A DNA stretch of 33,153 nt from an uncultured Gemmatimonadaceae bacterium (GCA_964626245.1 CAZVDJ010000001.1:1-33153), one strand, 5' to 3'. Shown: positions 16,483 to 33,153, numbered from the stretch's first letter. Made by a program: numbers and translations. The notes: generated by a model from the sequence alone, not told the origin.

Positions 16483-17207
16483 GGGACGCCTCCCGTCGAG
16501 GGGGGAGATGCACCGAGCGAGCGCAGGAGCGACTCGATGGTGGCGCTTGCCGCGGCACTCCGGTCGGGCCCGGTCAGGGCGCCGTAGACATCGGGATACG
16601 CGAACCAGATGGCGTGCGCGGCGAGCGTGGCGAGCACGGTGCGGGCGGCGGCTCGAACATCCGCGGTGTGCAGCTCGCCACGCTGCACCCCGCCGGTGAT
16701 GATCCGTTCCAGCTCGTGCAGGAGTCGCTCGAACGATTCGGCCGCGTGAAAGACGGCCAACTCGGGAAAGCGGGGAAGCTCGGCGATGGTGAGGCGCACC
16801 AGGGCGAGCATCTCGGGACGCTCCATGGCGCTCCAGTACCGGCGCGCAAAGCGGCCGACCTGGTGGGCGGCGTCGCGTAGGTCGGCCACCGTCGCGACAT
16901 CGGCACCATCCGCACCGTCGGCGGCGGGGGTGGAATCTGAGGGATCGGCCGCGGTCACCGCCGCGAGCATGGCATCCGGACCGGCAACGCTCTGGATCAG
17001 GGTCCAGCGGACCATGTCACGGAACAGCTCGTGCTTGTCTGAGAAATGGCGGCGCACCAGGTGCAGCGAGACGCCGGCCCGGCGCGCCACGCTGCGCATG
17101 GACGTCAGGGCAAACCCCATCTCGCTGAACTCGACGAGCGCCGCGCGGAGAATGGTTTCCGACGGGTCGTTGGACGGCACGGGAGAGGGGAGGGAGATCG
17201 AGGACAC
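16479..17207 (-). CDS. TetR/AcrR-family transcriptional regulator
   Basis: ORF 16479..17342 trimmed to GTG 17207 (VSSISLPSPVPSNDPSETILRAALVEFSEMGFALTSMRSVARRAGVSLHLVRRHFSDKHELF...), 242 aa. N-terminal HTH, then a helical C-terminal ligand domain. The exact start is uncertain. Confidence 0.8.
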   Translation of the reverse strand: MSSISLPSPVPSNDPSETILRAALVEFSEMGFALTSMRSVARRAGVSLHLVRRHFSDKHELFRDMVRWTLIQSVAGPDAMLAAVTAADPSDSTPAADGADGADVATVADLRDAAHQVGRFARRYWSAMERPEMLALVRLTIAELPRFPELAVFHAAESFERLLHELERIITGGVQRGELHTADVRAAARTVLATLAAHAIWFAYPDVYGALTGPDRSAAASATIESLLRSLGASPPSTGGVP

Positions 17208-17338
17208 GTGGAGGAACCTGCCTGTCGAGTGATCGTGCGGGCGCCGCGGAGCCGGCGCGCCGAGATGAAGGGCAACGGACGCGCCACCCGCGGTGGGGCG
17301 CGGCGCGGGCGCCGAAGCGCCGAGTATGTCTCGATGCA

Positions 17339-17350
17339 GCAAGCGCTTGC
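17339..17350. promoter_or_regulatory. Perfect 12-bp palindrome GCAAGCGCTTGC in the TetR/EBP divergent intergenic region
   Basis: Read directly. Candidate operator; the binding protein is unknown. Confidence 0.3.
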
Positions 17351-17402
17351 GTGCGCGGTCCTTCCCGCTGGCGGCCGGAGAGCCTGCTTGTGCCCTTACG
17401 AC

Positions 17403-17414
17403 ATTTCGCGAAAT
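17403..17414. promoter_or_regulatory. Perfect 12-bp palindrome ATTTCGCGAAAT (TCGCGA core), about 70 nt upstream of the first EBP gene
   Basis: Read directly. It lies in the most AT-rich stretch of the 277-bp intergenic region. It shares the TCGCGA(AAT) core with the blocks upstream of the two sigma-54 promoters. Confidence 0.35.
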
Positions 17415-17484
17415 TGGGAGATCTCACGCCCTCGCAGTTCCAACCCATGGGCGCCGCGTCGCGCGCCAGGCACCGACCCCTCCG

Positions 17485-19065: not shown

Positions 19066-20715
19066 ATGACCTCCCCCGTCGATCCCCACGACGTGATGCC
19101 GCTTCCCGCGGCGCGCCTGGAGGTGCAGGTGGAGCTCCTGCGGCGCGTCACGCGCCACATGACGACTGCCGAGGACTTCGCGACGGTGCTGCAGTCGATT
19201 GCCGACGCCCTGGTGGCACAGGCCGGGGCGGTCGTGGCCCACATCTACCTGTACCTCGACGACGACGAGTGCCCGGTGTGCCGCACGCGGGCCCGGGAGG
19301 GACCGGCGGCCGGCGGCGCGCGGGGCGTCACGGGGCGCGACCTCCATCTCGTGACGATGAGCGGGGCACATTTTGCGCCTGACGGATCACGCCATCTCGT
19401 CCCTCATGCGCTGGACACACCGGCCGCGCGCATGATCCACTCCCCTGTTCCCGTGAGCAGGGACGACTTCGTCGACGACCCCGAGTGGCGCGCGGGCGAT
19501 CCCCGCTTCGCCGAGATCATGCGGCGCCTCGAAGTCCGCGGCACGATCTGCTATCCGCTGGTGCACCGGGGGGAACGACTGGGTGCACTCGGCTACCTCT
19601 CGCGCAGCCCCATCGACCCGGTCGTCTTCGAGTTGCTGGGGATCTTCGCCGACCAGGCGGCCATGGTCATTCGCAGCGCGCAGCTCTTTCGCGAAGTGGC
19701 GACGCACCGCGAGCGGCTGCAGTCGGAGAACGCATACCTGGAGGATGAGATCCGGAGCGACGCCAACTTCACGCACATCGTGGGGACGAGCACCGCGCTG
19801 CAGGGGGTCCTGCGCAAGGTGCGGCAGGTGGCCCCGGTGGAGACGACGGTACTGCTCACCGGCGAGACGGGGACGGGGAAGGAACTGATTGCGCGCGCCA
19901 TTCACGACGCGAGCCCGCGCAAGGATCGCCCGCTGATCAAGATCAACTGCGGCGCAATTCCGCAGGGAGTGGTGGAGAGCGAGCTCTTCGGCCATGAACG
20001 CGGGGCGTTCACTGGCGCGATGCAACAGCGCATTGGGCGATTCGAACTGGCGCACCAGGGCACGCTCTTCATGGACGAGGTGGGCGAACTTCCGCTCGAG
20101 ACGCAGGTCAAGCTGTTGCGCGTCCTGCAGGAGCGGGAATTCGAGCGGGTGGGGGGCACCAAGCCCATCGCCGTCGACGTACGGCTGATCGCGGCCACCA
20201 ACCGCGACCTGGAAGCCGAAGTGGCCGCCGGACGCTTTCGTGCGGACCTGTTCTATAGACTGAACGTCTTTCGCATCCGGATTCCCCCGTTGCGCGAGCG
20301 TCCCGACGACATCCCGCCGCTGGTGCAGCACCTCCTGGCGCAGCTGCAGCGCAAGCTGGCCAAGCCGCTCAAGGGGGTAAGCGAGGAGACGATGGCGCAG
20401 CTTCGGCGGTATCCCTGGCCCGGGAACATCCGCGAGCTGCAGAACGTGCTGGAACGCGCCGCGGTCCTCGCCACCGGGCCGATCGTGGCGTTGCACGATC
20501 CGCTGCGCCCAACCGCGATGGCGGGAAGTGCGGCATCGGGCGAGGTGACGATCTCCACGCTCGAGGACGGCGAGCGCGAACACATCCGCCGTGCGCTGAA
20601 GGAGAGCGGCGGCAAGGTGCACGGCCCGGGCGGGGCCGCCGAGATGCTGGGCATCAACCCCAGCACGCTGCGCTCGCGCATGCAGAAGCTCGCGATCGAC
20701 GCTCGAGGGAGTTAG
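19066..20715 (+). CDS. Sigma-54-dependent transcriptional activator (EBP), GAF / AAA+ / Fis-type HTH (paralog 2)
   Basis: ORF track 549 aa. LLTGETGTGKE, ESELFGHERGAFTGA, LFMDEVGEL, HTH AAEMLGINPSTLRSRMQKLAI. The ATG lies 3 nt after the paralog-1 stop. The AAA+ core is roughly three-quarters identical to paralog 1 by eye. Confidence 0.9.
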   Translation: MTSPVDPHDVMPLPAARLEVQVELLRRVTRHMTTAEDFATVLQSIADALVAQAGAVVAHIYLYLDDDECPVCRTRAREGPAAGGARGVTGRDLHLVTMSGAHFAPDGSRHLVPHALDTPAARMIHSPVPVSRDDFVDDPEWRAGDPRFAEIMRRLEVRGTICYPLVHRGERLGALGYLSRSPIDPVVFELLGIFADQAAMVIRSAQLFREVATHRERLQSENAYLEDEIRSDANFTHIVGTSTALQGVLRKVRQVAPVETTVLLTGETGTGKELIARAIHDASPRKDRPLIKINCGAIPQGVVESELFGHERGAFTGAMQQRIGRFELAHQGTLFMDEVGELPLETQVKLLRVLQEREFERVGGTKPIAVDVRLIAATNRDLEAEVAAGRFRADLFYRLNVFRIRIPPLRERPDDIPPLVQHLLAQLQRKLAKPLKGVSEETMAQLRRYPWPGNIRELQNVLERAAVLATGPIVALHDPLRPTAMAGSAASGEVTISTLEDGEREHIRRALKESGGKVHGPGGAAEMLGINPSTLRSRMQKLAIDARGS

Positions 20716-20803: not shown

Positions 20804-20907
20804 CGCGAAGCCGACGGGTCGCACCAGGCGCCGTCGTGACACGGGCCGACCACGCATCTACAGCCGCCGCCGTGACTTGCAGCGCACCCCGGTGCCTGAC
20901 CGGCGGG

Positions 20908-20923
20908 TGGCAATCCGGTTGCA
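20908..20923 (+). promoter_or_regulatory. Sigma-54 (-24/-12) promoter TGGCAA-TCCGG-TTGCA
   Basis: Read directly. GG and GC are separated by exactly 10 nt. It is intergenic, on the same strand as the adaptor gene, with its 3' end 85 nt upstream of the adaptor ATG (21009), directly downstream of two EBP genes. Confidence 0.65.
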
Positions 20924-21008
20924 TTGGGCTGGATGCGCCGGCAAGCGGGACCCTCGCGTCACCGCGACAACGGCCCAACGACAGTCCTCACGCGTCCAGA
21001 CCACTTCC

Positions 21009-22025
21009 ATGACAAAGACCCATCGCATTCTCATTGCGGCCACCACGCTCACCCTCGTCGGTGCCTTCGTGGCCCATCGCACGCTCGCCGCGGCCGATGG
21101 TGCCGACGTGATCACTGCCTCCGGTACGGTCGAGGCCACACAAGCAGAGCTCGGCTTCCAGCTCGCCGGGCGGCTGGAGCTCCTGACGGTCCGCGAAGGC
21201 GACGCCGTGACGGCGGGGACCGAACTTGCGCTGCTCGAGCGCGACGAGCTGCTGGCGCAGAAGGCCGCGGCCGAGGCGCAGCGGGCGGGCGCCGAGGCGG
21301 TGCTGCGGGAGCTGATCGCCGGCAGTCGCCGCGAGGAGATCGCGCAAGCCCGCGCCGCTCTCTCCGTGGCCACCGAGCGACGTGACGCGGCGCGACGCGA
21401 CGTGGAGCGGCTGCGGCCACTGGCCGACCAGTCGCTGGTGAGTCGCCAGGCCTTCGATCGCCAGGGCACGGCGCTCAGCGTCGCCGATGGCGAGGTGGCA
21501 CAGGCCAACGAACAGTTGCAGCTCCTGCAAAACGGCCCGCGCGCCGAGCGCATCGCGGCGCAGCGCGCGGCCACGGCGCAGGCCGCGGCGACGATCGACC
21601 GCATCGACGCCATGCTCGACCAGACGCGCCTCGAGGCGCCGATGAACGGGGTGGTCACGGTGCGGCATCGCGAGCCCGGTGAGACGCTGTCCCCGGGCAT
21701 GCCCGTGCTCACCATTCGCGACCTGGGCGACCGCTGGGTGCGCCTCTACGTCCCCGGCGACCAGGTGGGCCGGCTGCAGCTTGGGCAGCGCGCGACGATC
21801 ACTGCCGACGCCAATCCCGAGCTCATGTACACGGGGGAGGTGTCGTACATCGCCAGCGAGGCCGAGTTCACGCCACGCAACGTGCAGACGACGAAGGACC
21901 GCGTGAAGCTCGTGTACGAGGTGCGGGTCCGCATCACCAACGACGCTGCGATCGACCTCAAGCCCGGGCTCCCGGCCGACGTGCGCTTCACGGTCGCCCC
22001 CTCGCAGGGACGAGGTGCCACATGA
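21009..22025 (+). CDS. HlyD-family periplasmic adaptor (YbhG-like) of an ABC-2 efflux system
   Basis: ORF 20877..22025 trimmed to ATG 21009 (MTKTHRILIAATTLTLVGAFVAH...), 338 aa. N-terminal TM anchor, long coiled coil, C-terminal SYIASEAEFTPRNVQTTKDRVKLVYEVRVRI...LKPGLPADVRF typical of YbhG-type adaptors. Confidence 0.85.
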   Translation: MTKTHRILIAATTLTLVGAFVAHRTLAAADGADVITASGTVEATQAELGFQLAGRLELLTVREGDAVTAGTELALLERDELLAQKAAAEAQRAGAEAVLRELIAGSRREEIAQARAALSVATERRDAARRDVERLRPLADQSLVSRQAFDRQGTALSVADGEVAQANEQLQLLQNGPRAERIAAQRAATAQAAATIDRIDAMLDQTRLEAPMNGVVTVRHREPGETLSPGMPVLTIRDLGDRWVRLYVPGDQVGRLQLGQRATITADANPELMYTGEVSYIASEAEFTPRNVQTTKDRVKLVYEVRVRITNDAAIDLKPGLPADVRFTVAPSQGRGAT

Positions 22026-23017
22026 CCCACCCGCCTCCCGCCTCCCCGCCAGGCGCCGCGATCCGCGTGCAGGCGCTGACCAAGCGCTACGGTGCCCTCA
22101 CGGCGCTGGACACCCTGTCGCTGGAGGTGCGCAGCGGCGAGCTGTTCGGGATCGTTGGTCCCGACGGCAGTGGCAAGACCACCGTGCTGCGCATCCTGGC
22201 CGGCGTGCTGCGCCCGGAGGGTGGCGATGCCGTCGTCGCCGGCACCTCGGTCACGTCGGACCCGGAGGGGGTCAAGCACCGCATTGCCTACATGGCACAG
22301 CGCTTCGGGCTGTACGGCGACCTGTCGGTGCGCGAGAACATCGACTTCTACGCCGACCTGTACGGTGTGCCACGCGCCGTGCGCCCGGCGCGACTGGAGC
22401 GCCTGTTCGCCTTCTCCAACCTCGGCGCGTTCCAGCAACGGCTGGCGGGAAACCTGTCGGGCGGCATGAAGCAGAAGCTCTCGCTCTGTTGCGCCCTCAT
22501 CCATGAGCCCGAGGTGTTGCTGCTGGACGAGCCGACGTTCGGGGTGGATCCCATCTCGCGGCGCGAGCTCTGGCTCATCGTGCACGAGATGGTGGCCCGG
22601 GGGACGACGGCCGTGGTGTCGACGGCCTACCTGGACGAAGCGGAACGGTGCGACCGCGTGGCGTTGCTGAACCACGGCCGGCTGGCGGCGCTGGATACGC
22701 CGGCGGCGCTGCAGGCCAGGCTGGCGGGGCGATCGATCGCCATCGCATGCAACGCCCCGCGTCGCGCGGCTGCCCAGCTGCAAGGCATGGCTGGCGTGCG
22801 GAGCGCGGCGCTATACGGGCGCTCGCTGCACGTGACGCTCGAACAGCCACAGCTGGGCGAACAGGTCCTGGCGCATCTCCGTTCGGCGGGGATCGAGATC
22901 CAGTCGTCCCGGGCCTTCGACCCCTCGCTGGAAGATGTCTTCATCGAACTGTCGGCTACCGACGGCAGCACGCGCGGCAGTCACGACGCCACCCAGGGTT
23001 CTCTCCATGCCGCCTGA
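22022..23017 (+). CDS. ABC transporter ATP-binding protein (canonical motifs)
   Basis: ORF track 331 aa. Walker A GPDGSGKTT, signature LSGGMKQKL, Walker B LLLDEPTFGVD, H-loop STAYLDE. The ATG overlaps the adaptor stop (ATGA). Confidence 0.9.
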   Translation: MTHPPPASPPGAAIRVQALTKRYGALTALDTLSLEVRSGELFGIVGPDGSGKTTVLRILAGVLRPEGGDAVVAGTSVTSDPEGVKHRIAYMAQRFGLYGDLSVRENIDFYADLYGVPRAVRPARLERLFAFSNLGAFQQRLAGNLSGGMKQKLSLCCALIHEPEVLLLDEPTFGVDPISRRELWLIVHEMVARGTTAVVSTAYLDEAERCDRVALLNHGRLAALDTPAALQARLAGRSIAIACNAPRRAAAQLQGMAGVRSAALYGRSLHVTLEQPQLGEQVLAHLRSAGIEIQSSRAFDPSLEDVFIELSATDGSTRGSHDATQGSLHAA

Positions 23018-23960
23018 TCTCATGCCCGATGCCGTCACGGTGGACGGCCTGACCCGGCGCTACGGCGCCTTCACCGCGGTGGACGCCGTGAGCTTCTCCG
23101 TGCGTCCGGGCGAGGTGTTCGGATTCCTTGGCCCCAACGGGGCGGGGAAGACCACCACCATCAAGATGCTGACCGGGCTCGTGCGCCCCAGCGCCGGCCG
23201 CGGCAGCGTGGCCGGCTACGACGTGGTCACCAGCGGCGGGCGCATCAAGCACGTGATCGGATACATGTCGCAGCTGTTCTCGCTGTACCACGACCTCACG
23301 GTCGACGAGAACATCGACTTCGCGGCGGGGATGCACGGCGTGACGGGCACTCGCCTCGAGCGCCGCCGCGAGTGGGTGCTGTCGATGGCGCGCCTGCACG
23401 AGCATCGTGATCGCCCAACCGCCGCGCTGCCGCTGGGATGGAAGCAACGCCTGGCGCTGGGGTGTGCGGTGTTGCACGAACCCCGGGTGCTCTTTCTCGA
23501 CGAGCCGACCTCGGGGGTGGACCCGCTGGCCCGGCGCGCCTTCTGGGACGTGATCCACGAGCTGGCGCAGGGAGGGACCACGGTATTCGTGAGCACGCAC
23601 TACATGGAAGAAGCGGAGTACTGCGACCGGTTGGCGCTGATGAACCGTGGGCGCCTGATCGCGCTGGGCACCCCCGACACGTTGCGCGACGGCATGCCGG
23701 AGCCGGTGCTGCGGGTGGAGGTGAGCGACGCGCCACGTGCGGTGGCGGCGCTGGCCGGCGCCGACGGCGTGCTCGATGCCTCGCTCTTCGGCCGGGTGGT
23801 GCGGGTGATCGTGGCCGAAGCGTCGGTGGCCCGGGAGGCGGTGCGCCGCACCCTCGAAGGGGCGGGGCTTTCCTGTCTCGCCATTCAGCAGGTCGAACCC
23901 TCACTCGAGGACGTCTTCGTCTCGCACGTGCGGAATGCGGGGGGAGCGGTCATCTCATGA
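23007..23960 (+). CDS. ABC transporter ATP-binding protein (degenerate signature motif)
   Basis: ORF 22935..23960 trimmed to ATG 23007 (MPPDLMPDAVTVDGLTRRYG...); ATG 23022 is the alternative start. Walker A GPNGAGKTT, Walker B LFLDEPTSGVD, H-loop STHYMEE. The signature position reads LPLGWKQRL instead of LSGGQ. Confidence 0.9.
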   Translation: MPPDLMPDAVTVDGLTRRYGAFTAVDAVSFSVRPGEVFGFLGPNGAGKTTTIKMLTGLVRPSAGRGSVAGYDVVTSGGRIKHVIGYMSQLFSLYHDLTVDENIDFAAGMHGVTGTRLERRREWVLSMARLHEHRDRPTAALPLGWKQRLALGCAVLHEPRVLFLDEPTSGVDPLARRAFWDVIHELAQGGTTVFVSTHYMEEAEYCDRLALMNRGRLIALGTPDTLRDGMPEPVLRVEVSDAPRAVAALAGADGVLDASLFGRVVRVIVAEASVAREAVRRTLEGAGLSCLAIQQVEPSLEDVFVSHVRNAGGAVIS

Positions 23961-25108
23961 ATGCCACGAGTCACGGTGCGCTCCCGCGCACGTTCAGCGC
24001 GTCTCGGTTGTGGGCGATGGCGCGCAAGGAAGCGCTGCAGCTGCGGCGGGACGCGCGCAGCCTCGCGCTCGCCTTCGCCCTGCCGCTCCTGATGCTCATC
24101 CTGTTTGGCTACGCGATCACCACCGACGTCACCAACATCCAGGCGGCGGTGGTGGACCGCGACCACACGGCGGAGAGCCGCCGGTTCGTCGAGGCGTTCG
24201 CCCGGTCGGGCTACTTCACCTTCGTCGAGTCGCCGGCCAGCGAGGGGGCGCTCGACGGACTGATCGACAAGGGAAGGGTGCGGGTGGGGCTGGTGATCCC
24301 CGAGCGCTTCGCCGCCGAGTTGGCGGCGGGGCGGACGGCGCCGGTGGAACTGCGCCTGGATGGGAGCGACGCCAAGACGGCGACGGTGGCACGCGGCTAC
24401 GCGGATGCCATCGCCCGCACCTTCTCGCAGCAGACGGTTCTCCAGCTGCAACGTGCCACCCCTCCCCTCACGGCCCAGTCGCGCGTGTGGTACAACGAAA
24501 CGCTCGACTCCGCGTCGATGATCGTGCCGGGCCTGATTGCCGTGATCATGTCGATCATCGCCGCGATGCTCACCTCGCTCACGGTGGCACGCGAGTGGGA
24601 GCGGGGGACGATGGAACAGCTCGCGGCCACGCCGGTGAGCCGCAGCGAAGTGGTGCTCGGCAAGCTCGTCCCCTACCTGGCGATCGGCATCCTCGACGTG
24701 GCGGTCGCCCTGGTGGTGGCAGTGAGCATCTTCGACGTGCCGTTCCGGGGGAGCCTGCCCTTGTTCGCACTGTCGTCGGCGCTGTTCCTGGTTGGGGTGC
24801 TGGGGCTCGGGATCTTCATCTCGTCGGCGTTCAAGTCCCAGCTCCTGGCCACGCAGGCGGCGCTCTTCGCCACGTACATGCCCGCGCTGCTCTTCTCCGG
24901 CTTCATGTACACCATCAGCAACATGCCCGTGGCGCTGCAGTGGGTGTCGCGGGTGGTGCCGGCGCGCTACTTCGTCTCCATCTCGCGCGGGCTCTTCCTC
25001 AAGGGGGTCGGCACCGAGGTGCTGTGGCCGGCCCTGCTGGGGCTCACCCTTTACGCCGGGGCGATGCTGACCCTCGGCATCACGAAGTTCAAGAAGGAGC
25101 TGGCCTGA
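23957..25108 (+). CDS. ABC-2 type transporter permease (YbhS/YbhR-like)
   Basis: ORF 23438..25108 trimmed to ATG 23957 (MNATSHGALPRTFSASRLWAMARKEALQLRRDARSLALAFALPLLMLILFGYA...), 383 aa. N-terminal TM, large extracytoplasmic loop, C-terminal 5-TM ABC-2 core. The ATG overlaps the preceding stop (ATGA). Confidence 0.85.
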   Translation: MNATSHGALPRTFSASRLWAMARKEALQLRRDARSLALAFALPLLMLILFGYAITTDVTNIQAAVVDRDHTAESRRFVEAFARSGYFTFVESPASEGALDGLIDKGRVRVGLVIPERFAAELAAGRTAPVELRLDGSDAKTATVARGYADAIARTFSQQTVLQLQRATPPLTAQSRVWYNETLDSASMIVPGLIAVIMSIIAAMLTSLTVAREWERGTMEQLAATPVSRSEVVLGKLVPYLAIGILDVAVALVVAVSIFDVPFRGSLPLFALSSALFLVGVLGLGIFISSAFKSQLLATQAALFATYMPALLFSGFMYTISNMPVALQWVSRVVPARYFVSISRGLFLKGVGTEVLWPALLGLTLYAGAMLTLGITKFKKELA

Positions 25109-26244
25109 TGCACGCGACCGCGCATGCACCGCCGGACCGCTTCTCCTGGTCCCGGCTCTGGCACATGGTGCGAAAGGAACTGAAGCAGATGTGGCGCGAT
25201 CCCAAGGCGCGCCCCCTGCTCTTCATCTCCCCGATCTTCCAGATGTTCCTGATGGGCTATGCCGCAACGACGGACGTGAACGACATCACGACGATCGTGG
25301 CCGACCACGACCGCACCATGGAGTCGCGGGCGCTGGTGGCGGCCTACGAAGCAACGGGCTACTTCACGGTGGTGCGGCACACGGACCGCGCGGGAGACGT
25401 GACGGCCGCGCTGAACACGGGCGAGGCGATCGTGGGACTCACCATCCCGCCAGGCTTCTCGCGAGACCTGGCGTCCGGTCGCGCCATCGTACAGGCGGTG
25501 ATCGACGGTGCCGACGCCAGCCAGGCGACGGTGGCGCAGTCGTACGCCAACCAGATCGCCACCGAGTTCGGGGCGAAGCTGACCGGGCGACGCCTCGGCG
25601 GGGGCGTTGAGCTCCGCTCGCGCGCCTGGTTCAACCCGAGCTTCGAGAGCCGGTTCTTCAATGTGCCGGCCATCATGGGCGTTCAGATCTTCATGATCGG
25701 ACTGCTGCTCACCGCACTTGGTGTGGTGCGCGAGCGGGAAATCGGCACGCTGGACCAGCTGATGGTGAGCCCGATCCTCCCCGCCGAGTTCATGCTGGGC
25801 AAGACCATCCCGGTGCTGGGACTGGGGCTGCTCCACCTGGTGATCTACACGGTGATGACGGTTTGGCAGTTCGGGGTCCCGTTGACGGGGTCCTTTGCCT
25901 CGCTGGCCCTGGCGACATTCCTCTACACCCTGGCCGGGTTGGCCATCGGGCTCCTGATCTCGACCGTTTCGCGCACGCAGCAGGAGGCGTTCATGCTGCT
26001 GATCCTCTTCTTCCTCCCCGCCGTCATGCTCTCGGGCTTCGTGTCGCCGGTGGAGAGCATGCCCCTGGCGTTCCAGTGGCTCACCGTGCTCAACCCGGTG
26101 CGCTACTTCCTCGAGATCGTGCGCGGCGTCTTCCTCAAGGGGATCGGCCTGGGTGTGCTCTGGCCGCAGTACCTGATCCTGACGGTCATGGCAGTCGTCA
26201 CCCTTCAGTTTGCCACGCACCGGCTCAAGCGCCTGGTGGCCTGA
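25108..26244 (+). CDS. ABC-2 type transporter permease (YbhS/YbhR-like), paralog of the preceding gene
   Basis: ORF 23935..26244 trimmed to ATG 25108 (MHATAHAPPDRFSWSRLWHMVRKELKQMWRDPKARPLLFISPIFQMFLMGYA...), 378 aa. Same architecture as the preceding gene. 1-nt overlap with the preceding stop (TGATG). Confidence 0.85.
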   Translation: MHATAHAPPDRFSWSRLWHMVRKELKQMWRDPKARPLLFISPIFQMFLMGYAATTDVNDITTIVADHDRTMESRALVAAYEATGYFTVVRHTDRAGDVTAALNTGEAIVGLTIPPGFSRDLASGRAIVQAVIDGADASQATVAQSYANQIATEFGAKLTGRRLGGGVELRSRAWFNPSFESRFFNVPAIMGVQIFMIGLLLTALGVVREREIGTLDQLMVSPILPAEFMLGKTIPVLGLGLLHLVIYTVMTVWQFGVPLTGSFASLALATFLYTLAGLAIGLLISTVSRTQQEAFMLLILFFLPAVMLSGFVSPVESMPLAFQWLTVLNPVRYFLEIVRGVFLKGIGLGVLWPQYLILTVMAVVTLQFATHRLKRLVA

Positions 26245-26249
26245 CCCTA

Positions 26250-26290
26250 CCGCACCACCGCACCACCGCACCACCGCACCACCGCACGAC
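26250..26290. repeat. Octamer tandem repeat (ccgcacca x4 plus one imperfect copy), starting 6 nt after the permease stop
   Basis: Read directly and indexed by codon arithmetic from an overlapping ORF. Confidence 0.9.
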
Positions 26291-26294
26291 ACGC

Positions 26295-26328
26295 GAGGCC
26301 CGCACCCGAACCAACGGCTGCGGGCCTC
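26295..26328 (+). terminator. Strong GC-rich hairpin; candidate intrinsic terminator or RNA-processing structure after the ABC operon
   Basis: gaggcccgca (26295-26304) pairs perfectly with tgcgggcctc (26319-26328). Three more pairs are possible inside the loop (ccg/cgg). There is no T-tract after it, so terminator function is uncertain. Confidence 0.45.
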
Positions 26329-26353
26329 TGCCGTTAGGGGGAGCATCCCCGAA

Positions 26354-26446
26354 GGCCGTCGCGAGCGTCGTGGCGAGAGGCCGTCGCGACCGGCCGTCGC
26401 GAGCGGCCGCGGCGACATCGCGCGATCTCGCGACGTCGCGAAATCC
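26354..26446 (+). promoter_or_regulatory. TCGCGA-rich repeat cluster / candidate UAS for the second sigma-54 promoter
   Basis: Five TCGCGA hexamers in 83 bp (26359, 26384, 26397, 26428, 26436). GGCCGTCGCGA occurs three times. There is a 20-bp near-perfect palindrome ATCTCGCGAC/GTCGCGAAAT at 26425-26444 (9 of 10 arm positions pair). Block 26411-26446 aligns with 20766-20803. Confidence 0.45.
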
Positions 26447-26549
26447 AGCGACGCGCAGAGGGGACCCGCAAAGGACGCACGACGCGCCCGCGTGGTGCAA
26501 GTCGCACGACGACAGCGACTTGGCGTGACGTGCCACGCGGAGGCGGGAC

Positions 26550-26565
26550 TGGCACCCGCGTTGCC
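26550..26565 (+). promoter_or_regulatory. Sigma-54 (-24/-12) promoter TGGCAC-CCGCG-TTGCC
   Basis: Read directly and confirmed by codon indexing. GG-N10-GC spacing is exact and the TGGCAC matches consensus fully. Its 3' end is 69 nt upstream of the OMP ATG (26635), on the same strand. Confidence 0.65.
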
Positions 26566-26634
26566 TTCTCCAGTGGCGTCGCCGCCAGCGGCGATACGCA
26601 CCCAACACCACACTCACGATCGACTCGCCTTCAT

Positions 26635-28035
26635 ATGCCCTCCGCCACCTTCGCGCCCACATCCCGCCCTGTCTGCCCGGTGTCGGCACACCAGCACCTG
26701 GTCCGCGCATCGGTCGCGGCCGTCATGCTCGTCCTGGCACGGCCGGCCACGGCACACGCGCAGCAGCCGCTCTCACTCACGTTAGGCGGCGCGGCCCGCA
26801 TCGCAGCGGACCGCGGCACGCAGACCGAGGCCGCCCGCGCACGATCGGCACAGGCCGATGCCCGCGCCGTGCAACGTCGCTCGGCGCTGCTGCCGTCACT
26901 CTCGACGTCGACGCAGTACAGCGCCCGGACCTTCAACACGGCCTCGCTCGGGCTCAACATGCCCACGCCCAGCGGCGAGCCGGCGTTCGACACACGCGGC
27001 GAGGTGCTGGGCCCCGTGCGCTCCACCGACCTGCGCACGCAGCTCTCGCAGCGCGTGCTGGACCTGCCTGCCCTCTATGGCTGGCGAGCCGCGGGCGCGG
27101 ACGCGGAAGCGGCGCGCTTCGGCGTGAACCAGGCCTCGGAGGAGGCGGCCGAGCGCGGTGCGCTGGCCTACCTGGCGGTGGTGCGCGCCGAGGCACGCAT
27201 CGCCGCGCGCAGCGCGGATTCGGCGCTGGCGGCAGAGCTGGTCGACATCGCGCGGCAGCAGGTGCAGGCAGGCGTCGGCATCGCCCTCGACGTCACGAGG
27301 GCCCAGGCGCACCTGGCCGACGCCAGGGCGCGGCTCATTGCGACCCGAAGCGATCGCGATCGTGGCCTCCTCCAGCTCAAGCATGAGCTGGCGTTGGCAG
27401 CCGAGGCGCCGATCACCATCGCGGATTCGCTCGCCGACCCCGGCTCCGAAGAGTTTGACGAAGATCCGTCGGGCCTGCTGCAGGCGGCCCTGGCACGCCG
27501 CGCCGACTTCCTCGAGGCGCAGGCGCTGAGCGTGAGCGCGTCGACCCAGATGCGCGCGGCCCGTGCCGAACGCTACCCGGTGATCTCGCTCTTCGCCGAC
27601 CAGGGGCGCAACGGCAAGGACGTCGATCGCCTGCTCGACACGTACTCGTACGGCATCCAGGTGTCCGCGCCCCTCTTCGACGGCTTTCGCGCCTCGTCGC
27701 GCGCCGCGGAGCAGAAGGGGCGTCAACGCGAGGCGGAAGCCCGCATGGCCGACACGCGCCGGCAGGTGGAGACCGACGTGCGCTCCGCGCTGCTCACGCT
27801 TCGGGCCACGCGCGAGGAAGTGGCGGCGGCGCAGGCCCGCCTGACGCTCGCCGAGCAGGAAGTCGCGCAAGCGCGCGAGCTCTTCAAGGCAGGGATCAGT
27901 GGCAACAGTGACGTGATCAATGCCTCCATCGGGCTCAATGGCGCTCGCGACCTCGTGATCGACGCGCTCGCCCGCTACCACCAGTCGCGCGTGGCGCTGG
28001 CCAACGCGCAAGGCACCACCACGCAGATCCGCTGA
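26635..28035 (+). CDS. TolC-family outer membrane efflux protein
   Basis: ORF 26530..28035 trimmed to ATG 26635, 466 aa. Signal-like VAAVMLVLARPATAHA/QQ. Duplicated OEP pattern (LSLTLGGAARIAADRGTQTEAARARSAQADA...; LLQAALARRADFLEAQALSVSASTQMRAARAERYPVISLFADQG...). C-terminal ARYHQSRVALANAQG. Confidence 0.85.
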   Translation: MPSATFAPTSRPVCPVSAHQHLVRASVAAVMLVLARPATAHAQQPLSLTLGGAARIAADRGTQTEAARARSAQADARAVQRRSALLPSLSTSTQYSARTFNTASLGLNMPTPSGEPAFDTRGEVLGPVRSTDLRTQLSQRVLDLPALYGWRAAGADAEAARFGVNQASEEAAERGALAYLAVVRAEARIAARSADSALAAELVDIARQQVQAGVGIALDVTRAQAHLADARARLIATRSDRDRGLLQLKHELALAAEAPITIADSLADPGSEEFDEDPSGLLQAALARRADFLEAQALSVSASTQMRAARAERYPVISLFADQGRNGKDVDRLLDTYSYGIQVSAPLFDGFRASSRAAEQKGRQREAEARMADTRRQVETDVRSALLTLRATREEVAAAQARLTLAEQEVAQARELFKAGISGNSDVINASIGLNGARDLVIDALARYHQSRVALANAQGTTTQIR

Positions 28036-28064
28036 TCACCCTGCCAGAATCCGAGGACCTTCGC

Positions 28065-28364
28065 ATGTCGTTCATGCGCTTCCTGTTCCCGCGCCCGCTC
28101 AGTGATGACACGGCCAGGGCCCGTGCACTCCAGCAGTGGCTTGCCACCGGCGTGGTCCCGGTGGCGCACATGGTCGCCGACCTGGGTGCCATGGGCGAGG
28201 CCACTGGAGAGTTCGAACGACCACGCCCGGCGGCCATTCGTGCCGGCTCCACGTTCCCCGCCCGTTCGGCGCACCCGCTGCCCAGCAGCCTCCACGACAC
28301 GTCCTGCCATCGCCCATGTCGCCTGTCACCCCAAACGTGCGCGTGCGTCCATCATCACCGGTGA
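28065..28364 (+). CDS. Small hypothetical protein (99 aa) with a Cys/His-rich C-terminal tail
   Basis: GAGGA at 28053-28057 lies 7 nt before ATG 28065. Third-position GC is roughly 80% in this frame by my count. The stop overlaps the next ATG by 1 nt (TGATG), the same junction style seen elsewhere in the window. The tail reads SCHRPCRLSPQTCACVHHHR. I recognise no family. The last 50 nt are frame-ambiguous by codon bias. Confidence 0.45.
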   Translation: MSFMRFLFPRPLSDDTARARALQQWLATGVVPVAHMVADLGAMGEATGEFERPRPAAIRAGSTFPARSAHPLPSSLHDTSCHRPCRLSPQTCACVHHHR

Positions 28365-29314
28365 TGCGACGCCTGCTGGGCCTCGCGGCGTGGTTCGCCA
28401 CGCTCGTGCCAGCCATCACGTGGATGGCCGGGCGGGACAGCACGTTGCGCCTGGTCCTGAGCGGCGGCGATTCGCTGCTCACGACCCGTGTGCATGCGCC
28501 ATTGCTGGGCCGCGTCTCGTGGATCCTGGCCGGGACGCTCGCGGCGACGCTTCCGGTGATGTGGACGCGTTCGATCACGGCCAGGCGGCGCGGGTGGTCG
28601 CAGTCGGCCGTGCAGTCGCTGGTGGCGGTGCCGCTGCTGGCGGCGGGCGTCGTGCTGGTCGTGCCGCACGGTGCCGTGATCTCGCTGGCGCTGGTGTCGC
28701 TGCTGGCCGCCGTGCGGGTGGGGCGCAGCGCGCGCCGGTCGACCGACGTCATCGCCCTGGGCGTGGTGACATCGGCCGGCATCTCGGCGGCACGCGGACA
28801 GCTGGCGGTTGGTCTCGCCGTGTGCCTGTCGTATTGCGCGGTGTCGCTGCTCTGTGCCTGGCTGGATGTGGCGCGCCGTCCCGTGCGCGGGTTGCGGCGC
28901 CGTTGGACGTCGCGCGCTCCGTCAGGTGCACGACGGGCGCGCGCGGCACTGCTGCGGGATGGAAGGGTCGCGAACCGGCGAGCCGTCGCCGAGGACTCCG
29001 ACGCAGCATTCCGGCTGGCGGCGCGCGCATGGCGCGAGCGCCTGGCCATCGCGTCGTCGCCGTCCGACCCGCAGCGCGACCCTCGCTTCAACGCCGTGCT
29101 CAGCATCCACTCGACGGATGGCGCGCGTGTGCAGGCGCGACTCGAGCGGATCCTGCGCGAGTGCACCAGACGCTGGGAACTGCGCGCCTGTGAGCCGGGG
29201 GAGGATGGGAGGACGGTCCTGCGCTACGGCATCCGCGTGCCGCGCACCTCACGCGGGCGGTTGCTCGACGCGCTGCAACGCTCGGCGATTGCCGAGGGAG
29301 TGGAGCTGAGGTGA
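28364..29314 (+). CDS. Hypothetical polytopic membrane protein (about 6 TM) with a roughly 120-aa C-terminal soluble domain
   Basis: ORF 28136..29314 trimmed to ATG 28364 (MRRLLGLAAWFATLVPAITWMAG...), 316 aa; ATG 28316 is the alternative start. High third-position GC from 28364 onward. The C-terminal region FNAVLSIHSTDGARVQARLERILRECTRRWELRACEPGEDGRTVLRYGIRVP... looks like a small alpha/beta (ACT-like) module. Confidence 0.6.
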   Translation: MRRLLGLAAWFATLVPAITWMAGRDSTLRLVLSGGDSLLTTRVHAPLLGRVSWILAGTLAATLPVMWTRSITARRRGWSQSAVQSLVAVPLLAAGVVLVVPHGAVISLALVSLLAAVRVGRSARRSTDVIALGVVTSAGISAARGQLAVGLAVCLSYCAVSLLCAWLDVARRPVRGLRRRWTSRAPSGARRARAALLRDGRVANRRAVAEDSDAAFRLAARAWRERLAIASSPSDPQRDPRFNAVLSIHSTDGARVQARLERILRECTRRWELRACEPGEDGRTVLRYGIRVPRTSRGRLLDALQRSAIAEGVELR

Positions 29315-32300
29315 TGACGAAGCCGAGGACCTTTCAGGCAGTCGGTCGGTGGGACGCTCCCGGGGGCGACGCCCTCGGGCGCCTGGTGGCGGAGGGGGCA
29401 CCGTTCGCGCTCTCCGTCACCACCCCGCGCCGCACCGACTTTCGCGATGTCTACTTCGATACGGCCGACGGCGCCCTCCTGGCACAGGACGTCAGCTGCG
29501 TCCTGCGCCACCATGGGGCGGGGCACGGTACGCTGGTGGTGGCGCGGGGCTTTGACGGGGCGAGCGATGGGCCGACGGGCGCCGGCACGGCGATCGAGAT
29601 CGGCCACTCCGCAGTCGAGGTGCTCACGCGCGACAATGCGGCCACGCGTCAGCTGCGGCCATTCGTGGATCCGTCTGCACTCGCGCCGTGGCTCGAACTG
29701 GCGACCACTCGTCAGGCGGTGCACGCCGCGTCGCGCAGGTGGTTTCGCAAGTCGTCCTACACGCTGGCCTCCGATACGATGACGGTGCGTGCCGCCGGGT
29801 TGTCGGCCGTCTTCCATGAAGTGGCGATGCACGTGCAGCGCGACGGACGCCCCGGCGCGGCGGACGTGGGCGAGGCGCTGGCCGCGCGCCTGGGGCTGCG
29901 CGCCTCAACGGTGGAGCGACGGGTGCGAGCGCACGCGTTGCGATCGGCGCTGGAGCATGAGGCGAGCGCGCGCCGCGTGCGTGACGGCGGTCGCGTGGCC
30001 ATGGTGGCGCTCGACGGCCCACGCGTGGCGGCGGTGCGCGACGCGTCGGGCTGGCGCCTACCGGTGCTCGAGGGAAGCGGAGAGCTGACCGCGCGCCTGT
30101 TGCTGCAGCGGATCCTTGGCACGTCGGGGGGCGACGTGCAGCTCGTCTCGACGACCGACGGTGACCGCGAAGGGCGGGCGCCGCTGGAGGTCTGGTCCTG
30201 CACGGGCCTCGATCACTCCGCGCTGGCCGTGGGGCGTGGCGCGGTGGCGTGGCTCCCGATCGAGGAGCTGCTGGCGCACATCGAGACGCGGGAGGTGCAC
30301 GACGCGGCGACGCGCGCCGCGCTCGTGTCGCTCACCCGGTCCGACACGCTCAGATGGCTGGTGTCGTTGCCCTCGACGGCGCAACCGAGTGGGCGGCGCG
30401 CGCCGCGACAAGGCGCGGAGCGACAAGGCGCGCCGCGCGAGGGAGCGGCCAGCGTGCCGGCGATCGACGCCGACCTGAGCCTGCTCTCGTTCAACGAGCG
30501 CGTGCTTTCGCTGGCGACGGACGGCGCCACCCCGCTCCTGGATCGGTTGCGGTACGTGGCCATCGTCGGGGCCAACATCGACGAGTTTGTCTCGGTGCGC
30601 CTGGGCCGCCTCCGGGCGCGCGGCCGCCCCGGCGGCGACGGCGAGATTGCGCACCCGGCACGCCAGCGGCTGCGGCGCGTACGCGCGCGGCTGGCGCGGC
30701 TGTACGCCGAGCGTGATGCGGCACTCACGGGGACGCTGGCGGCGCTTCGCGCCAGCGGCCTGGCGGTTGAGCGGCTGCAGGATCTCGGCGCCGCGGACCA
30801 GGCAGCGCTGGACGAGCAGTTCCGCGCGCTGGTGTATCCGCTGCTCACCCCGCGCGCCCTGTCAGCGCTCCCGGGGTATCGCCGCGGCGTGATCGCGGCT
30901 CGCCAGCTGCATCTCGCGGTCGTGCACCGGGAGCCCTCGACGGGACTTCGCCAGCTGGCGGTGGTGGCGATCCCGCCGTCGGTCCCGCACTTCCTCTCGC
31001 TGCCTGGCGGCTCGACGTTCGTGGCGCTGGAGGAGGTACTGCGGCGCCATGTGCCGATGCTCTTTCCCGGGCGCGTGCTGGACGGGGCATACGCCTTTCG
31101 CGTGGGGCGGCACGCCGACCTCGACCTGGACGAAGCAGTGGCCGGGAGCCTGCTGCACGCGGTGGATGAACACGCGCGCCGCCGGGCGCGGCGTCCGATC
31201 GTGCAGGTGGAGGTGGAGCCGGGGATGCCGCGCGACATCCGGCGCCTCCTCCTGCGTGAGCTGGCCCTCGAGCCGGGGGTGCGCGCCGCCGGACTCGACG
31301 AGGACGACGTCGTGGAGGTGCCCGGCTTCCTGGATGTGACTGGCTTTCGCCAGTTGGCCGACCTGCCACGGGCGGAGCTTCGCTTCGCGCCACACGGCGC
31401 GCGCGACCCGCTGGCACGCGAGGCGTGCCTGTGGACGGCGCTCCGTCGGGAGGACCTGCTCGTGCACCATCCCTACGACGACTTCGCCGCCACGGTGGTG
31501 CGGTTCTTCGAGGCCGCGGCCGACGACCCCGACGTGATCGCCATCAAGGTGTCGCTCTACCGCACCGGTGACACGTCGCCGATTGCCGATGCGCTGCGCC
31601 GCGCCGCGCTGGCGGGGAAGGAGGTGTCGGTCTTCGTGGAGCTGCGGGCGCGCTTCGACGAGGAGCGCAACGTGCATTGGACGCGGTGCCTCGAGGAGGC
31701 GGGAGTGCACGTCGTGCACGGGGTACCGGGGATCAAGACGCACGCCAAGGTCGCACTGGTGGTGCGCCGGGAGCCCGATGGCCCGCAACGCTACGCCCAC
31801 GTCGCGACGGGCAACTACAACGCCGCAACGGCTCGGCTGTACACCGACCTCGGTCTCTTCACGACGCGCACGCGGGTGTGCGACGACGTCACCGACCTCT
31901 TCAATGCGCTGACATCGGGCCAGGTACCCGACCACATCGGCTTTCGTGACTGCCTGGTGGCCCCTGGCGGCTTGGCCACTGACCTTGTCACGCGGATTGC
32001 CGGCGAGGCCGCGCATGCGCGAGCCGGCCGTCCCGCCCGCATTCGCCTGCAGGTGAACGGTGTGGCCGACCCGCAGGTGGTCGAGGCGCTGTACGACGCT
32101 GCACGCGCGGGCGTGGAGGTCGACCTCGTGGTGCGCGGCTTGTGCACGCTGCGCCCCGGGGTTCCCGGTCATTCCGAACGCATCCGCGTCGTGAGCCTCG
32201 TGGGGCGCTACCTGGAGCACGCCCGCATCTACACCTTCGCCAACGGGGGCCAACCCGCATATTTCATCGGTTCGGCCGACCTGCGCGCGCGCAACCTGCG

Positions 32301-32511
32301 GCGGCGGGTCGAGGTGCTGGTGCCGATCGTCGAGCCGGCGCAGTGCGAGCGGCTGGATGCGATGCTGGACGCGGCCATGGCCGACCCAACGGGTTGGCGG
32401 CTGCAGTCCGATGAGTCCTACACGCGTGCTGCAGCTTCGGCATGGGACGAGGCCAGCGCGCAGGCGCGCCATGCGCGTGGCATGCTCACGGAAGGGACGG
32501 AGGCGTCCTGA
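29314..32511 (+). CDS. ppk1: Polyphosphate kinase 1 with a roughly 385-aa N-terminal extension containing a CYTH (triphosphate tunnel)-like domain
   Basis: ORF track 29311..32511; ATG at 29314 overlaps the preceding stop. PPK1 hallmarks: LSLLSFNERVLSLATDGATPLLDRLRYVAIVGANIDEFVSVR (N domain), GIKTHAKVALVVRREPDGPQRYAHVATGNYNAATARLYTDLGLFT (phospho-His region), VSLVGRYLEHARIYTFANGGQPAYFIGSADLRARNLRRRVEVLVPI (C2 domain). N-terminal CYTH-like strands: DFRDVYFDTADGALLAQDVSCVLR, TAIEIGH, VFHEVAMHVQRDG, LGLRASTVERRVRAHAL. Confidence 0.85.
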   Translation: MTKPRTFQAVGRWDAPGGDALGRLVAEGAPFALSVTTPRRTDFRDVYFDTADGALLAQDVSCVLRHHGAGHGTLVVARGFDGASDGPTGAGTAIEIGHSAVEVLTRDNAATRQLRPFVDPSALAPWLELATTRQAVHAASRRWFRKSSYTLASDTMTVRAAGLSAVFHEVAMHVQRDGRPGAADVGEALAARLGLRASTVERRVRAHALRSALEHEASARRVRDGGRVAMVALDGPRVAAVRDASGWRLPVLEGSGELTARLLLQRILGTSGGDVQLVSTTDGDREGRAPLEVWSCTGLDHSALAVGRGAVAWLPIEELLAHIETREVHDAATRAALVSLTRSDTLRWLVSLPSTAQPSGRRAPRQGAERQGAPREGAASVPAIDADLSLLSFNERVLSLATDGATPLLDRLRYVAIVGANIDEFVSVRLGRLRARGRPGGDGEIAHPARQRLRRVRARLARLYAERDAALTGTLAALRASGLAVERLQDLGAADQAALDEQFRALVYPLLTPRALSALPGYRRGVIAARQLHLAVVHREPSTGLRQLAVVAIPPSVPHFLSLPGGSTFVALEEVLRRHVPMLFPGRVLDGAYAFRVGRHADLDLDEAVAGSLLHAVDEHARRRARRPIVQVEVEPGMPRDIRRLLLRELALEPGVRAAGLDEDDVVEVPGFLDVTGFRQLADLPRAELRFAPHGARDPLAREACLWTALRREDLLVHHPYDDFAATVVRFFEAAADDPDVIAIKVSLYRTGDTSPIADALRRAALAGKEVSVFVELRARFDEERNVHWTRCLEEAGVHVVHGVPGIKTHAKVALVVRREPDGPQRYAHVATGNYNAATARLYTDLGLFTTRTRVCDDVTDLFNALTSGQVPDHIGFRDCLVAPGGLATDLVTRIAGEAAHARAGRPARIRLQVNGVADPQVVEALYDAARAGVEVDLVVRGLCTLRPGVPGHSERIRVVSLVGRYLEHARIYTFANGGQPAYFIGSADLRARNLRRRVEVLVPIVEPAQCERLDAMLDAAMADPTGWRLQSDESYTRAAASAWDEASAQARHARGMLTEGTEAS

Positions 32512-33153
32512 TGCGCCATTTCTTCCTCCGCCTGCGCCGAGCGGTCGCCGCGGTGATGCTTGCCAGTGTCGTCCTCCTGGCAGGGGGCGCCGGGCGTCCT
32601 CCCGCCGCGTCTCCCACGGCGCTGGGGCGGTTCGACCTGCGGCGGCGCGCCGCACGGCAGGTGCCGCTCCCGTCGGAACTGCGCGAAGTCTCCGGGCTGG
32701 CCGTGGACGCGCGCGGCGCGCTGTACGCGCACGGGGATGAACGCGGCGTTATCCGCCAGCTGCACGCGGCCTCGGGACGCATCGTGCGTTCGTTTCCCAT
32801 CGGTGATCCCCCGGTCCGGGCCGACCTCGAGGGAATCGCCGTCGCCGGCCAGCAGCTGGTGGTCATGACAAGCGATGGACTGCTCTACACCGCCACTCTC
32901 GGTATGGAGGGGACGGCCGGCCCCTTCACGCGCACCGACACCGGGCTGGGGCCGTGGTGCGAGCTGGAGGGGATGGCGTACGACCACGCACGCGACCTCC
33001 TCCTCATCGGCTGCAAGCTGCCGGCGCAACCGACCGGCAACCGAAACGTGACGCTCTTCCGCTGGTCGCGCGCGGCCGGGCGCCTGGCCCAGCCGGACCG
33101 CATCACCGTGCCCATGTCCCAGGTCACGCGCGCGAGCGGGGTGTCGCGCTTTC
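32511..33153 (+). CDS. Secreted SdiA-regulated/YjiK-like beta-propeller protein, N-terminal 214 codons (continues past the right edge)
   Basis: Absent from the ORF track because it is open at the edge. My own translation from ATG 32511 (1-nt overlap with the ppk stop, TGATG) has no stop to 33153: MRHFFLRLRRAVAAVMLASVVLLAGGAG...LPSELREVSGLAVDARGALYAHGDERGVIRQLHAASGRIVRSFPIGDPPVRADLEGIAVAG... Signal peptide plus SGL / DxEGIA motifs. The family call is from recollection. Confidence 0.6.
   Translation, partial: MRHFFLRLRRAVAAVMLASVVLLAGGAGRPPAASPTALGRFDLRRRAARQVPLPSELREVSGLAVDARGALYAHGDERGVIRQLHAASGRIVRSFPIGDPPVRADLEGIAVAGQQLVVMTSDGLLYTATLGMEGTAGPFTRTDTGLGPWCELEGMAYDHARDLLLIGCKLPAQPTGNRNVTLFRWSRAAGRLAQPDRITVPMSQVTRASGVSRF

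Follow-up and report, generated by a model that had tools for sequence, protein, structure and literature searches.

A Gemmatimonadota polyphosphate kinase 1 with CYTH and Nudix-like domains, encoded next to a DUF4956 membrane protein

Architecture of the locus

We analyzed a 33,153-nucleotide stretch of DNA from an uncultured Gemmatimonadaceae bacterium (GCA_964626245.1, CAZVDJ010000001.1:1-33153; hereafter, the window), focusing on a gene for polyphosphate kinase 1 (PPK1) in which the kinase core is preceded by a long N-terminal extension and which lies between the genes of a DUF4956-type membrane protein and a secreted beta-propeller-like protein (Table 1). A preliminary description, made from the sequence alone, had reported at 29314-32511 an open reading frame (ORF) of 1065 amino acids (aa) with an extension of ~385 aa before PPK1. 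Profile searches agreed with this layout: the Pfam domains of PPK1 occupied aa 386-1051, and the NCBIfam PPK1 model TIGR03705 matched from residue 385 (617.8 bits, cut-off 465.85), where the string DLSLLSFNERV was also found (~aa 385, nt ~30466). A GTG at 29311 is an alternative to the ATG at 29314 and would give a protein of 1066 instead of 1065 aa.

The Pfam families PF13089, PF02503, PF17941 and PF13090 scored 65.9, 106.7, 224.5 and 185.6 bits, respectively, each above its cut-off (E-values from 4.6e-18 to 7.7e-67), and solved PPK1 structures aligned over the full PPK1 part (E = 1.6e-98, and 1.3e-95 for 1XDO). Both catalytic histidine motifs were present in the alignment, GIKTHAK and YLEHAR corresponding to GLKIHAK and YLEHDR of solved PPK1. 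In Escherichia coli Ppk the catalytic histidines of the two PLD-like C domains are H435 and a second histidine. These alignments show that the C-terminal ~680 aa comprise a complete PPK1 with intact catalytic motifs, and the core is apparently catalytically competent.

All domains of the protein belong to known superfamilies, and there is nothing unusual in the enzyme core; the novelty lies in how the domains are combined, in the non-canonical motif state, in the restriction to a single phylum and in the operon with DUF4956. Public databases name the relatives only 'polyphosphate kinase (1)', and we found no account in the literature of PPK1 fused to CYTH or to Nudix, or of peculiarities of Gemmatimonadota PPK1.

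Table 1. Features of the PPK1 locus and of the rest of the window
Feature	Position	Strand	Residues or length	Basis and remarks
CYTH / Nudix-like / PPK1 fusion, whole gene	29314-32511	+	1065 aa	
TTM/CYTH tunnel domain	29314-29988	+	aa 1-225	AlphaFold2, Foldseek, Pfam on relatives, family profile
Nudix-fold domain without Nudix box	29989-30369	+	aa about 226-352	AlphaFold2, Foldseek
Linker, Pro/Arg/Gly-rich, predicted disordered	30370-30465	+	aa 353-384	Low pLDDT
PPK1 core, complete	30466-32463	+		Pfam, NCBIfam, alignment to solved PPK1
PPK1 N domain	30466-30762	+	aa 386-484	
PPK1 middle domain	30796-31353	+	aa 496-681	
PPK1 C1 domain	31432-31917	+	aa 708-869	
PPK1 C2 domain	31954-32463	+	aa 882-1051	
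DUF4956-type inner-membrane protein	28316-29314	+	332 aa if start is ATG 28316	Homology, AlphaFold2
Secreted beta-propeller-like protein, 5' part	32511-33153	+	First 214 residues	Signal peptide MRHFFLRLRRAVAAVMLASVVLLAGG; runs off window end
Terminator-like hairpin 3' of OEP efflux gene	28062-28078	+		1 site versus 0.3 expected; consensus match only
Efflux operon	20877-28035	+		Ends at hairpin 28062-28078
HlyD-type adaptor	20877-22025	+		
ABC ATPase, DrrA type	22022-23017	+		
ABC ATPase, DrrA type	22935-23960	+		
ABC-2 permease	23935-26244	+	769 aa	
Outer-membrane factor OEP	26530-28035	+		
Sigma-54 activator	17293-19062	+		GAF, AAA+ sigma-54 interaction, Fis-type HTH
Sigma-54 activator	19066-20715	+		GAF, AAA+ sigma-54 interaction, Fis-type HTH
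TetR regulator	16479-17342	-		
AcrB-family RND pump	12521-15694	-		E = 2e-263
MacB/FtsX-type permease	9321-12293	-	990 aa	

Translation of the N-terminal extension

The GC content of the window is 66-76%, and long ORFs alone are therefore weak evidence of a gene. The extension could accordingly be an annotation artefact, translation in truth starting only around residue 385 and the 1.15 kb before it being untranslated or part of another gene; spurious long ORFs are common at 71-75% GC, and the preliminary description had itself raised the possibility of a downstream start. However, GC by codon position in the frame of the extension was that of a coding sequence from 29311 on (0.78-0.94 at third and 0.52-0.62 at second positions), and the region before 29311 showed the coding signature in another frame, that of the upstream gene. 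When the extension was compared with that of a 78%-identical relative on contig L001, substitutions were in excess at third positions (34, 33 and 115 differences at codon positions 1, 2 and 3 over 352 aligned codons); of the codon changes, 88 were synonymous and 64 non-synonymous.

Homologues told the same story. A word-indexed search gave only 2 relatives, whereas an exhaustive search with a profile of the extension gave 409 protein clusters at E ≤ 1e-3 (104 at E ≤ 1e-30). About 30 of these were full length (1010-1108 aa), and hundreds of homologues share the architecture at identities to the window protein that fall to ~22% over the extension. The PPK ATG at 29314 shares bases with the stop codon of the upstream gene (GTGATG), as does the PPK stop codon with the ATG of the next gene (TGATG), an arrangement typical of translational coupling. 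Together with the confident two-domain fold described below, the codon-position GC, the substitutions, the homologues and the start and stop overlaps refute an artefact, which we regard as next to impossible, and confirm that the extension of ~385 aa is real and coding.

A CYTH tunnel domain with a non-canonical motif state

We modelled residues 1-384 with AlphaFold2 (AF2) from an alignment of 55 sequences (mean predicted local distance difference test score, pLDDT, 88.7). The first domain formed a tunnel barrel of eight beta-strands (aa 11-176) with C-terminal helices at 182-193 and 202-223, including a helix of the plug type, and pLDDT was mostly >90; in the linker, across which the family alignment was poor, it was 45-54 for aa 361-384. 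In a Foldseek search of the PDB, the best match of this domain was YgiF (5a60, E = 9.4e-8), followed by mouse and human thiamine triphosphatase (ThTPase), class IV adenylate cyclases (CyaB), SaTTM and plant TTM3 (5a60, 5a65, 2gfg, 3n0z and 7nsd being among the matches at E = 1e-7 to 2e-5).

Profile comparisons pointed to the same superfamily. Against Pfam CYTH (PF01928) the window protein scored 12.4-14.5 bits, under the gathering score of 23.2, and a Pfam and NCBIfam scan of its extension alone returned this sub-threshold match and nothing else; the relative P0002 lay just over the gathering score (23.4 bits), and 42 of the 55 relatives matched at E ≤ 0.01 (best, 2.1e-10). Membership by Pfam thus holds through the relatives and not through the window sequence alone. 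Likewise, a phmmer search of PDB sequences with the extension found nothing relevant and the family profile was needed, which matched E. coli YgiF at E = 4.4e-6 (profile positions 41-210). The stretch RDxYxDT is identical to RDTYYDT of human ThTPase. We conclude that this first domain is a CYTH/TTM domain, as the preliminary description had proposed from RDVYFDTADGAL (aa 44-55), TAIEIGH (aa 92-98) and FHEVAMHV (aa 167-174); these strings and TFQAVGRWD (aa 6-14), in which it had not recognised ExExK, were all located in the protein; the tunnel fold that it had suggested looking for by structure prediction is the barrel described above. A CHAD domain was found neither in the protein nor in its 55 relatives or the neighbours examined.

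CYTH proteins are characterized by four motifs (PMC8233210). The hallmark ExExK binds both metal and substrate, DxY positions the water, and xRxR is a substrate-binding motif. In ExE, metal 1 is bound by the first Glu, which the whole family conserves, and metal 2 by the second, without which there is no hydrolysis. We counted the conservation of these motifs over 97-124 relatives. ExExK, already noted as missing from the window protein (V10-G-R12-W-D14-A-P16), is lost throughout its relatives: E occupies position 10 in 45% and an acidic residue in about half of them, position 12, the site of the middle Glu, is R/K in 84%, position 14 is D/E in 76% and position 16 is P in 63%, so that the consensus of strand beta-1 is E-x-[RK]-x-[DE]-x-P. 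The remaining sites are mostly well conserved, namely D45 (D/E 96%) and Y47 (84%) of DxY, D49 (100%), R63 (83%) and R65 (95%) of xRxR, R133 (96%), D154 (89%), R205 (92%) and E169, the first Glu of ExE (77%). The second Glu of ExE is lost, position 171 being K in 28%, T in 13% and Glu in 10%; positions 169 and 171 align with ELELE of YgiF. The window protein keeps D45, Y47, R65, R133, D154, E169 and R205, and has V63 and A171. As judged from these frequencies, the predicted phosphate-binding half of the tunnel is strongly constrained, while the apparatus for two-metal hydrolysis lacks some of its parts. With ExExK and the second-metal Glu gone, binding is more likely than classical triphosphatase activity.

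The main rival explanation is that the CYTH domain is an active phosphohydrolase (a tripolyphosphatase, short-chain polyphosphatase or pyrophosphatase), so that the protein would be a bifunctional synthase/hydrolase whose tunnel trims chain ends, clears tripolyphosphate (PPPi) or pyrophosphate (PPi), or generates primers. YgiF, an inorganic triphosphatase, is the closest solved relative both by profile and by fold, and DxY, RxR and the metal-1 Glu are conserved together with D49 and D154. Moreover, AtTTM1 and AtTTM2 lack ExExK and ExE and keep xRxR and DxY, and AtTTM2 is still a pyrophosphatase (PMC8233210); because it is active despite the same motif state, inactivity of the present CYTH domain cannot be asserted. 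On the other hand, the family has E-x-[RK]-x-[DE] in place of ExExK, with a basic residue at the middle metal-binding Glu in 84% of relatives, the metal-2 position is only rarely Glu, and the window protein further lacks E10 and R63 (V at both). We consider an active CYTH domain possible, although on the unlikely side.

A Nudix fold without a Nudix box

The second domain of the AF2 model was most similar in Foldseek to the ADP-ribose pyrophosphatase of Thermus thermophilus (1v8y; E = 1.4e-5, root-mean-square deviation (rmsd) 3.2 Å, 130 columns, 21% identity), and the Nudix matches, including 1v8y, 3x0r and 8wv3, ranged from E = 1.4e-5 to 1e-4 with an rmsd of 3.2-3.7 Å over 130-136 columns. The degenerate Nudix fold that the preliminary description had very tentatively read from GWRLPVLEGSGELTARLLLQRILG (aa 246-269, present as quoted) is thus recovered in the predicted structure only. 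None of the 55 family members matched Pfam NUDIX and a search of PDB sequences with the family profile found no Nudix protein; the assignment is therefore made at the level of fold only.

Helix 256-268 occupies the place of the Nudix-box helix. The box itself (GX5EX7REUXEEXGU) is absent and fits only at L264 (81%) and G269 (90%): the RE and EE sites (262/263 and 266/267), whose glutamates the preliminary description had called replaced, are variable in the family (H/E/R, L/V, E/R/A and mixed). Nearly invariant residues of the domain are G254, G256, E257, R261, E292, W294 and W313, and G269 is also conserved. In a variant of ~930 aa (927-936 aa; L032, L036, L037 and L038; P0133, P0136 and P0140), the Nudix-like domain is missing and CYTH leads straight into PPK1; the source names given for P0136 and for a member of its cluster are Gemmatimonadota and Longimicrobiaceae. 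From the model we infer that the Nudix-shaped domain would be a non-catalytic module for ligand binding or scaffolding. The C-terminal domain of MutY is likewise a Nudix fold without the box.

It is also conceivable that the N-terminal region is mainly an allosteric sensor, in which the Nudix-shaped pocket and/or the tunnel binds a nucleotide-type signal (e.g. ADP-ribose, ApnA or (p)ppGpp) and switches PPK1 between synthesis and polyphosphate-driven regeneration of ATP. Such a role would agree with a Nudix fold that was kept while catalysis was lost, with near-invariant residues (G254, G256, E257, R261, E292, W294 and W313) that are consistent with a pocket, and with the recurrence of Nudix hydrolase genes near ppk, of which they are frequent neighbours (PMC8003754). 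However, the ligand cannot be inferred from the sequence, the domain is absent in some lineages, and the conserved Trp and Gly residues could just as well have a structural role or lie at a domain interface. We regard this explanation as doubtful; a sensor role of the Nudix-like pocket would be compatible with a binding tunnel as well as with an active CYTH domain.

Distribution of the fusion

How widespread the architecture is, a question raised in the preliminary description, was examined by a scan of genomes. Two peptide patterns derived from the family were run against 185,579 species, each represented by one genome, and yielded 33 confirmed loci, 33/33 of them in Gemmatimonadota (Gemmatimonadaceae, Gemmatimonadales and Longimicrobiales). 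The source names of relatives agreed with this phylum, except for single DUF4956 matches named Cytophagaceae and Thermoanaerobaculia. Within this pattern-based scan, the fusion is shown to be a Gemmatimonadota-specific form of PPK1; since the scan depends on the two patterns, absence from other phyla is not proven.

A conserved operon with DUF4956

The ORF upstream of the PPK gene is open from 28136. Its product had no direct Pfam match; it shared 67% identity with the neighbour of P0003 and 33% (E = 2e-36) with the product of L004 4914-5975, which matches PF16316 (DUF4956) with 39.5 bits against a cut-off of 30.6. A hidden Markov model of this DUF4956 family detected a copy in 29 of the 33 Gemmatimonadota loci, in 28 of them upstream on the same strand, and metagenomic contexts showed the same arrangement. 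Together with the overlapping start and stop codons, these results show that the PPK gene is translationally coupled to the upstream DUF4956 gene and to the downstream gene of the secreted beta-propeller, and that the DUF4956-PPK pair is conserved across the phylum. Neither this operon nor the restriction to Gemmatimonadota had been noticed in the preliminary description.

The AF2 model of the DUF4956 protein (pLDDT 79.7) comprised about six transmembrane (TM) helices and a C-terminal ferredoxin/ACT-like domain. This domain (residues ~260-331, pLDDT ~95) has a ferredoxin-like beta-alpha-beta-beta-alpha-beta order and lies at the cytoplasmic end; its weak fold matches were ACT, PII-like and the C-terminal domain of MgtC. 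Foldseek with the whole model gave no VTC match, just the weak ACT/PII-like matches of the C-terminal domain. On one contig (L042 2453-6406), a single ORF of 1317 aa (P0021) encodes CYTH, Nudix-like and PPK1 domains in one piece with the TM part of DUF4956, the ACT-like C-terminal domain of the latter being absent, which hints at a physical association of DUF4956 with the PPK fusion.

DUF4956 genes lie beside 'polyphosphate polymerase' genes in Firmicutes and Bifidobacteria as well (10.1101/768473). In our family, Pfam VTC (PF09359) was matched by 0/55 members. The polymerase genes of those bacteria encode VTC-type domains, which belong to the TTM superfamily.

The secreted beta-propeller of the window is 75% identical to the product of L001 9336-9893, a full-length homologue that matches the SdiA-regulated family (PF06977, 27.4 bits against 21) and, weakly, Phytase-like. 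Beta-propellers of this SdiA-regulated/phytase-like kind, a metallophosphoesterase and an Omp85-like protein of ~860 aa recur near the DUF4956-PPK pair in variable order. The order of this gene set (DUF4956, metallophosphoesterase, Omp85-like, beta-propeller and CYTH-PPK1) differs between L010, L025 and L037 on the one hand and L001, L004, L007 and L041 on the other, and in some loci the PPK stop codon is overlapped by the gene of the Omp85-like protein, which in others is placed between DUF4956 and PPK.

From this neighbourhood one could envisage an envelope-associated polyphosphate machine, a functional analogue of VTC, in which PPK1 is tethered via CYTH to DUF4956 and synthesis is coupled to passage of the chain to or through the membrane, while processing or display of polyphosphate in the periplasm or at the cell surface would fall to the metallophosphoesterase, the Omp85-like protein of the outer membrane and the secreted beta-propeller/phytase-like protein. 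The comparison of the DUF4956 model with the VTC channel by Foldseek was the only structural test of this scheme and gave no support, and we rate the scheme as improbable.

Other genes of the window

A terminator-like hairpin probably separates the DUF4956-PPK unit from the efflux operon that precedes it. No sigma-70-like promoter was found upstream of the DUF4956-PPK operon, and no Rfam RNA family in the window. A role in defence was considered and rejected, PADLOC having matched neither the extension nor the two neighbouring genes. Efflux systems are unusually numerous in the window (Table 1), and the efflux operon is closely preceded by a tandem pair of sigma-54 activators that are paralogues.

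Possible role of the fusion

The function of the CYTH/Nudix-like/PPK1 fusion is inferred from its architecture and neighbourhood. As a whole, the explanation that we favor, and hold to be somewhat better than an even bet, is a PPK1 with a mainly non-hydrolytic CYTH tunnel and a non-catalytic Nudix-shaped domain, which together tether and regulate polyphosphate synthesis. The PPK1 core would convert ATP to polyphosphate as other PPK1 enzymes do. The CYTH barrel, which keeps a putative phosphate-binding set (DxY, RxR, R133, R205 and the first Glu of ExE), would most likely be non-hydrolytic, or weakly or differently hydrolytic, and would hold a tri- or polyphosphate primer or the end of the nascent chain; another possible role is to anchor the kinase to the DUF4956 protein, its partner in the membrane. 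The Nudix-shaped domain would bind a ligand or serve as a scaffold, comparable to the box-less domain of MutY. Together, the extra domains would tether and regulate polyphosphate synthesis at the inner membrane. The mechanism is coherent with known associations: CYTH domains are otherwise fused to polyphosphate-binding CHAD domains in the literature, Nudix genes neighbour ppk, and DUF4956 genes stand beside 'polyphosphate polymerase' genes.

Several points weigh against this explanation. As AtTTM2 illustrates, being a pyrophosphatase without either motif, the missing ExExK and second Glu of ExE are no proof of inactivity; in addition, acidic residues occur at position 10 in about half of the family and at position 14 in 76%. 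The Nudix assignment comes from the predicted structure only (TM-score ~0.6 normalised to the target), without sequence-profile support, and the ~930-aa variant indicates that some lineages can do without this domain. That CYTH would dock on DUF4956 is deduced from gene order and one fused ORF, and that ORF, P0021, comes from a single unreplicated contig and is possibly an artefact of assembly or sequencing. Finally, a resemblance of DUF4956 to the VTC membrane channel was not supported by Foldseek of the model.

PPK1 is the main bacterial polyphosphate synthase, and it is poorly understood how chains are primed and held, where they are localised and how they are regulated. The phylum-wide fusion described here unites in a single polypeptide three families that had earlier been tied to polyphosphate solely by gene neighbourhood (CYTH-CHAD proteins, ppk-Nudix operons and VTC-domain/DUF4956 groups), gives DUF4956 a concrete, testable partner, and provides a natural experiment on a non-canonical CYTH tunnel beside a polymerase. 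The architecture and the operon suggest an undescribed way of handling polyphosphate. Gemmatimonas aurantiaca, the first cultured member of the phylum, was described as polyphosphate-accumulating (PMC5406452). The variant may thus be of importance to the phosphorus cycle of soils and wastewater, in both of which Gemmatimonadota commonly occur.

Comparison with known systems

YgiF-type CYTH-CHAD triphosphatases (PDB 5A60) give the best profile match (E = 4.4e-6) and the best fold match of the first domain, and in both systems a TTM tunnel is joined to a polyphosphate-related module. However, the fusion lacks CHAD, ExExK and the second Glu of ExE, and the partner of its tunnel is a polyphosphate synthase, not the polyphosphate-binding CHAD. 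In motif state the domain resembles CYTH proteins of the AtTTM1/2 type (cluster 7, PMC8233210), which also lack ExExK and ExE and have xRxR and DxY; those, in contrast, are plant proteins of the outer mitochondrial membrane without a kinase fusion, and the likeness is one of superfamily and motif state.

With Nudix hydrolases (1V8Y) the second domain shares the alpha/beta/alpha sandwich of the Nudix fold (at 21% identity, with an rmsd of 3.2 Å for 130 columns) but not the box GX5EX7REUXEEXGU, of which only a hydrophobic position and a Gly (L264 and G269) are left. The ppk-pptA(CHAD)-Nudix operon of Streptomyces (PMC8003754) similarly links PPK functionally to a Nudix protein and a polyphosphate-binding accessory module; there, the genes are separate and the Nudix protein is canonical, whereas here the parts are fused and the box is degenerate.

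Eukaryotic VTC, with Vtc4 on a membrane channel, and the bacterial VTC-domain/DUF4956/CotH groups are alike in pairing a polyphosphate-related domain of the TTM superfamily with a membrane protein, and DUF4956 is the recurrent partner both in these bacterial groups and in our operon. Unlike VTC, the present system presumably polymerises through PPK1 and not through the TTM domain, no family member matches Pfam VTC, and the DUF4956 model is unlike the VTC channel.

Finally, the kinase itself has the four domains of bacterial PPK1 (N, middle or head, C1 and C2) and both histidine motifs, as in E. coli Ppk (PDB 1XDO/1XDP; TIGR03705). Compared with characterized PPK1 of ~690 aa, the Gemmatimonadota form adds an N-terminal CYTH and Nudix-like extension of ~385 aa and is encoded in an operon with DUF4956.

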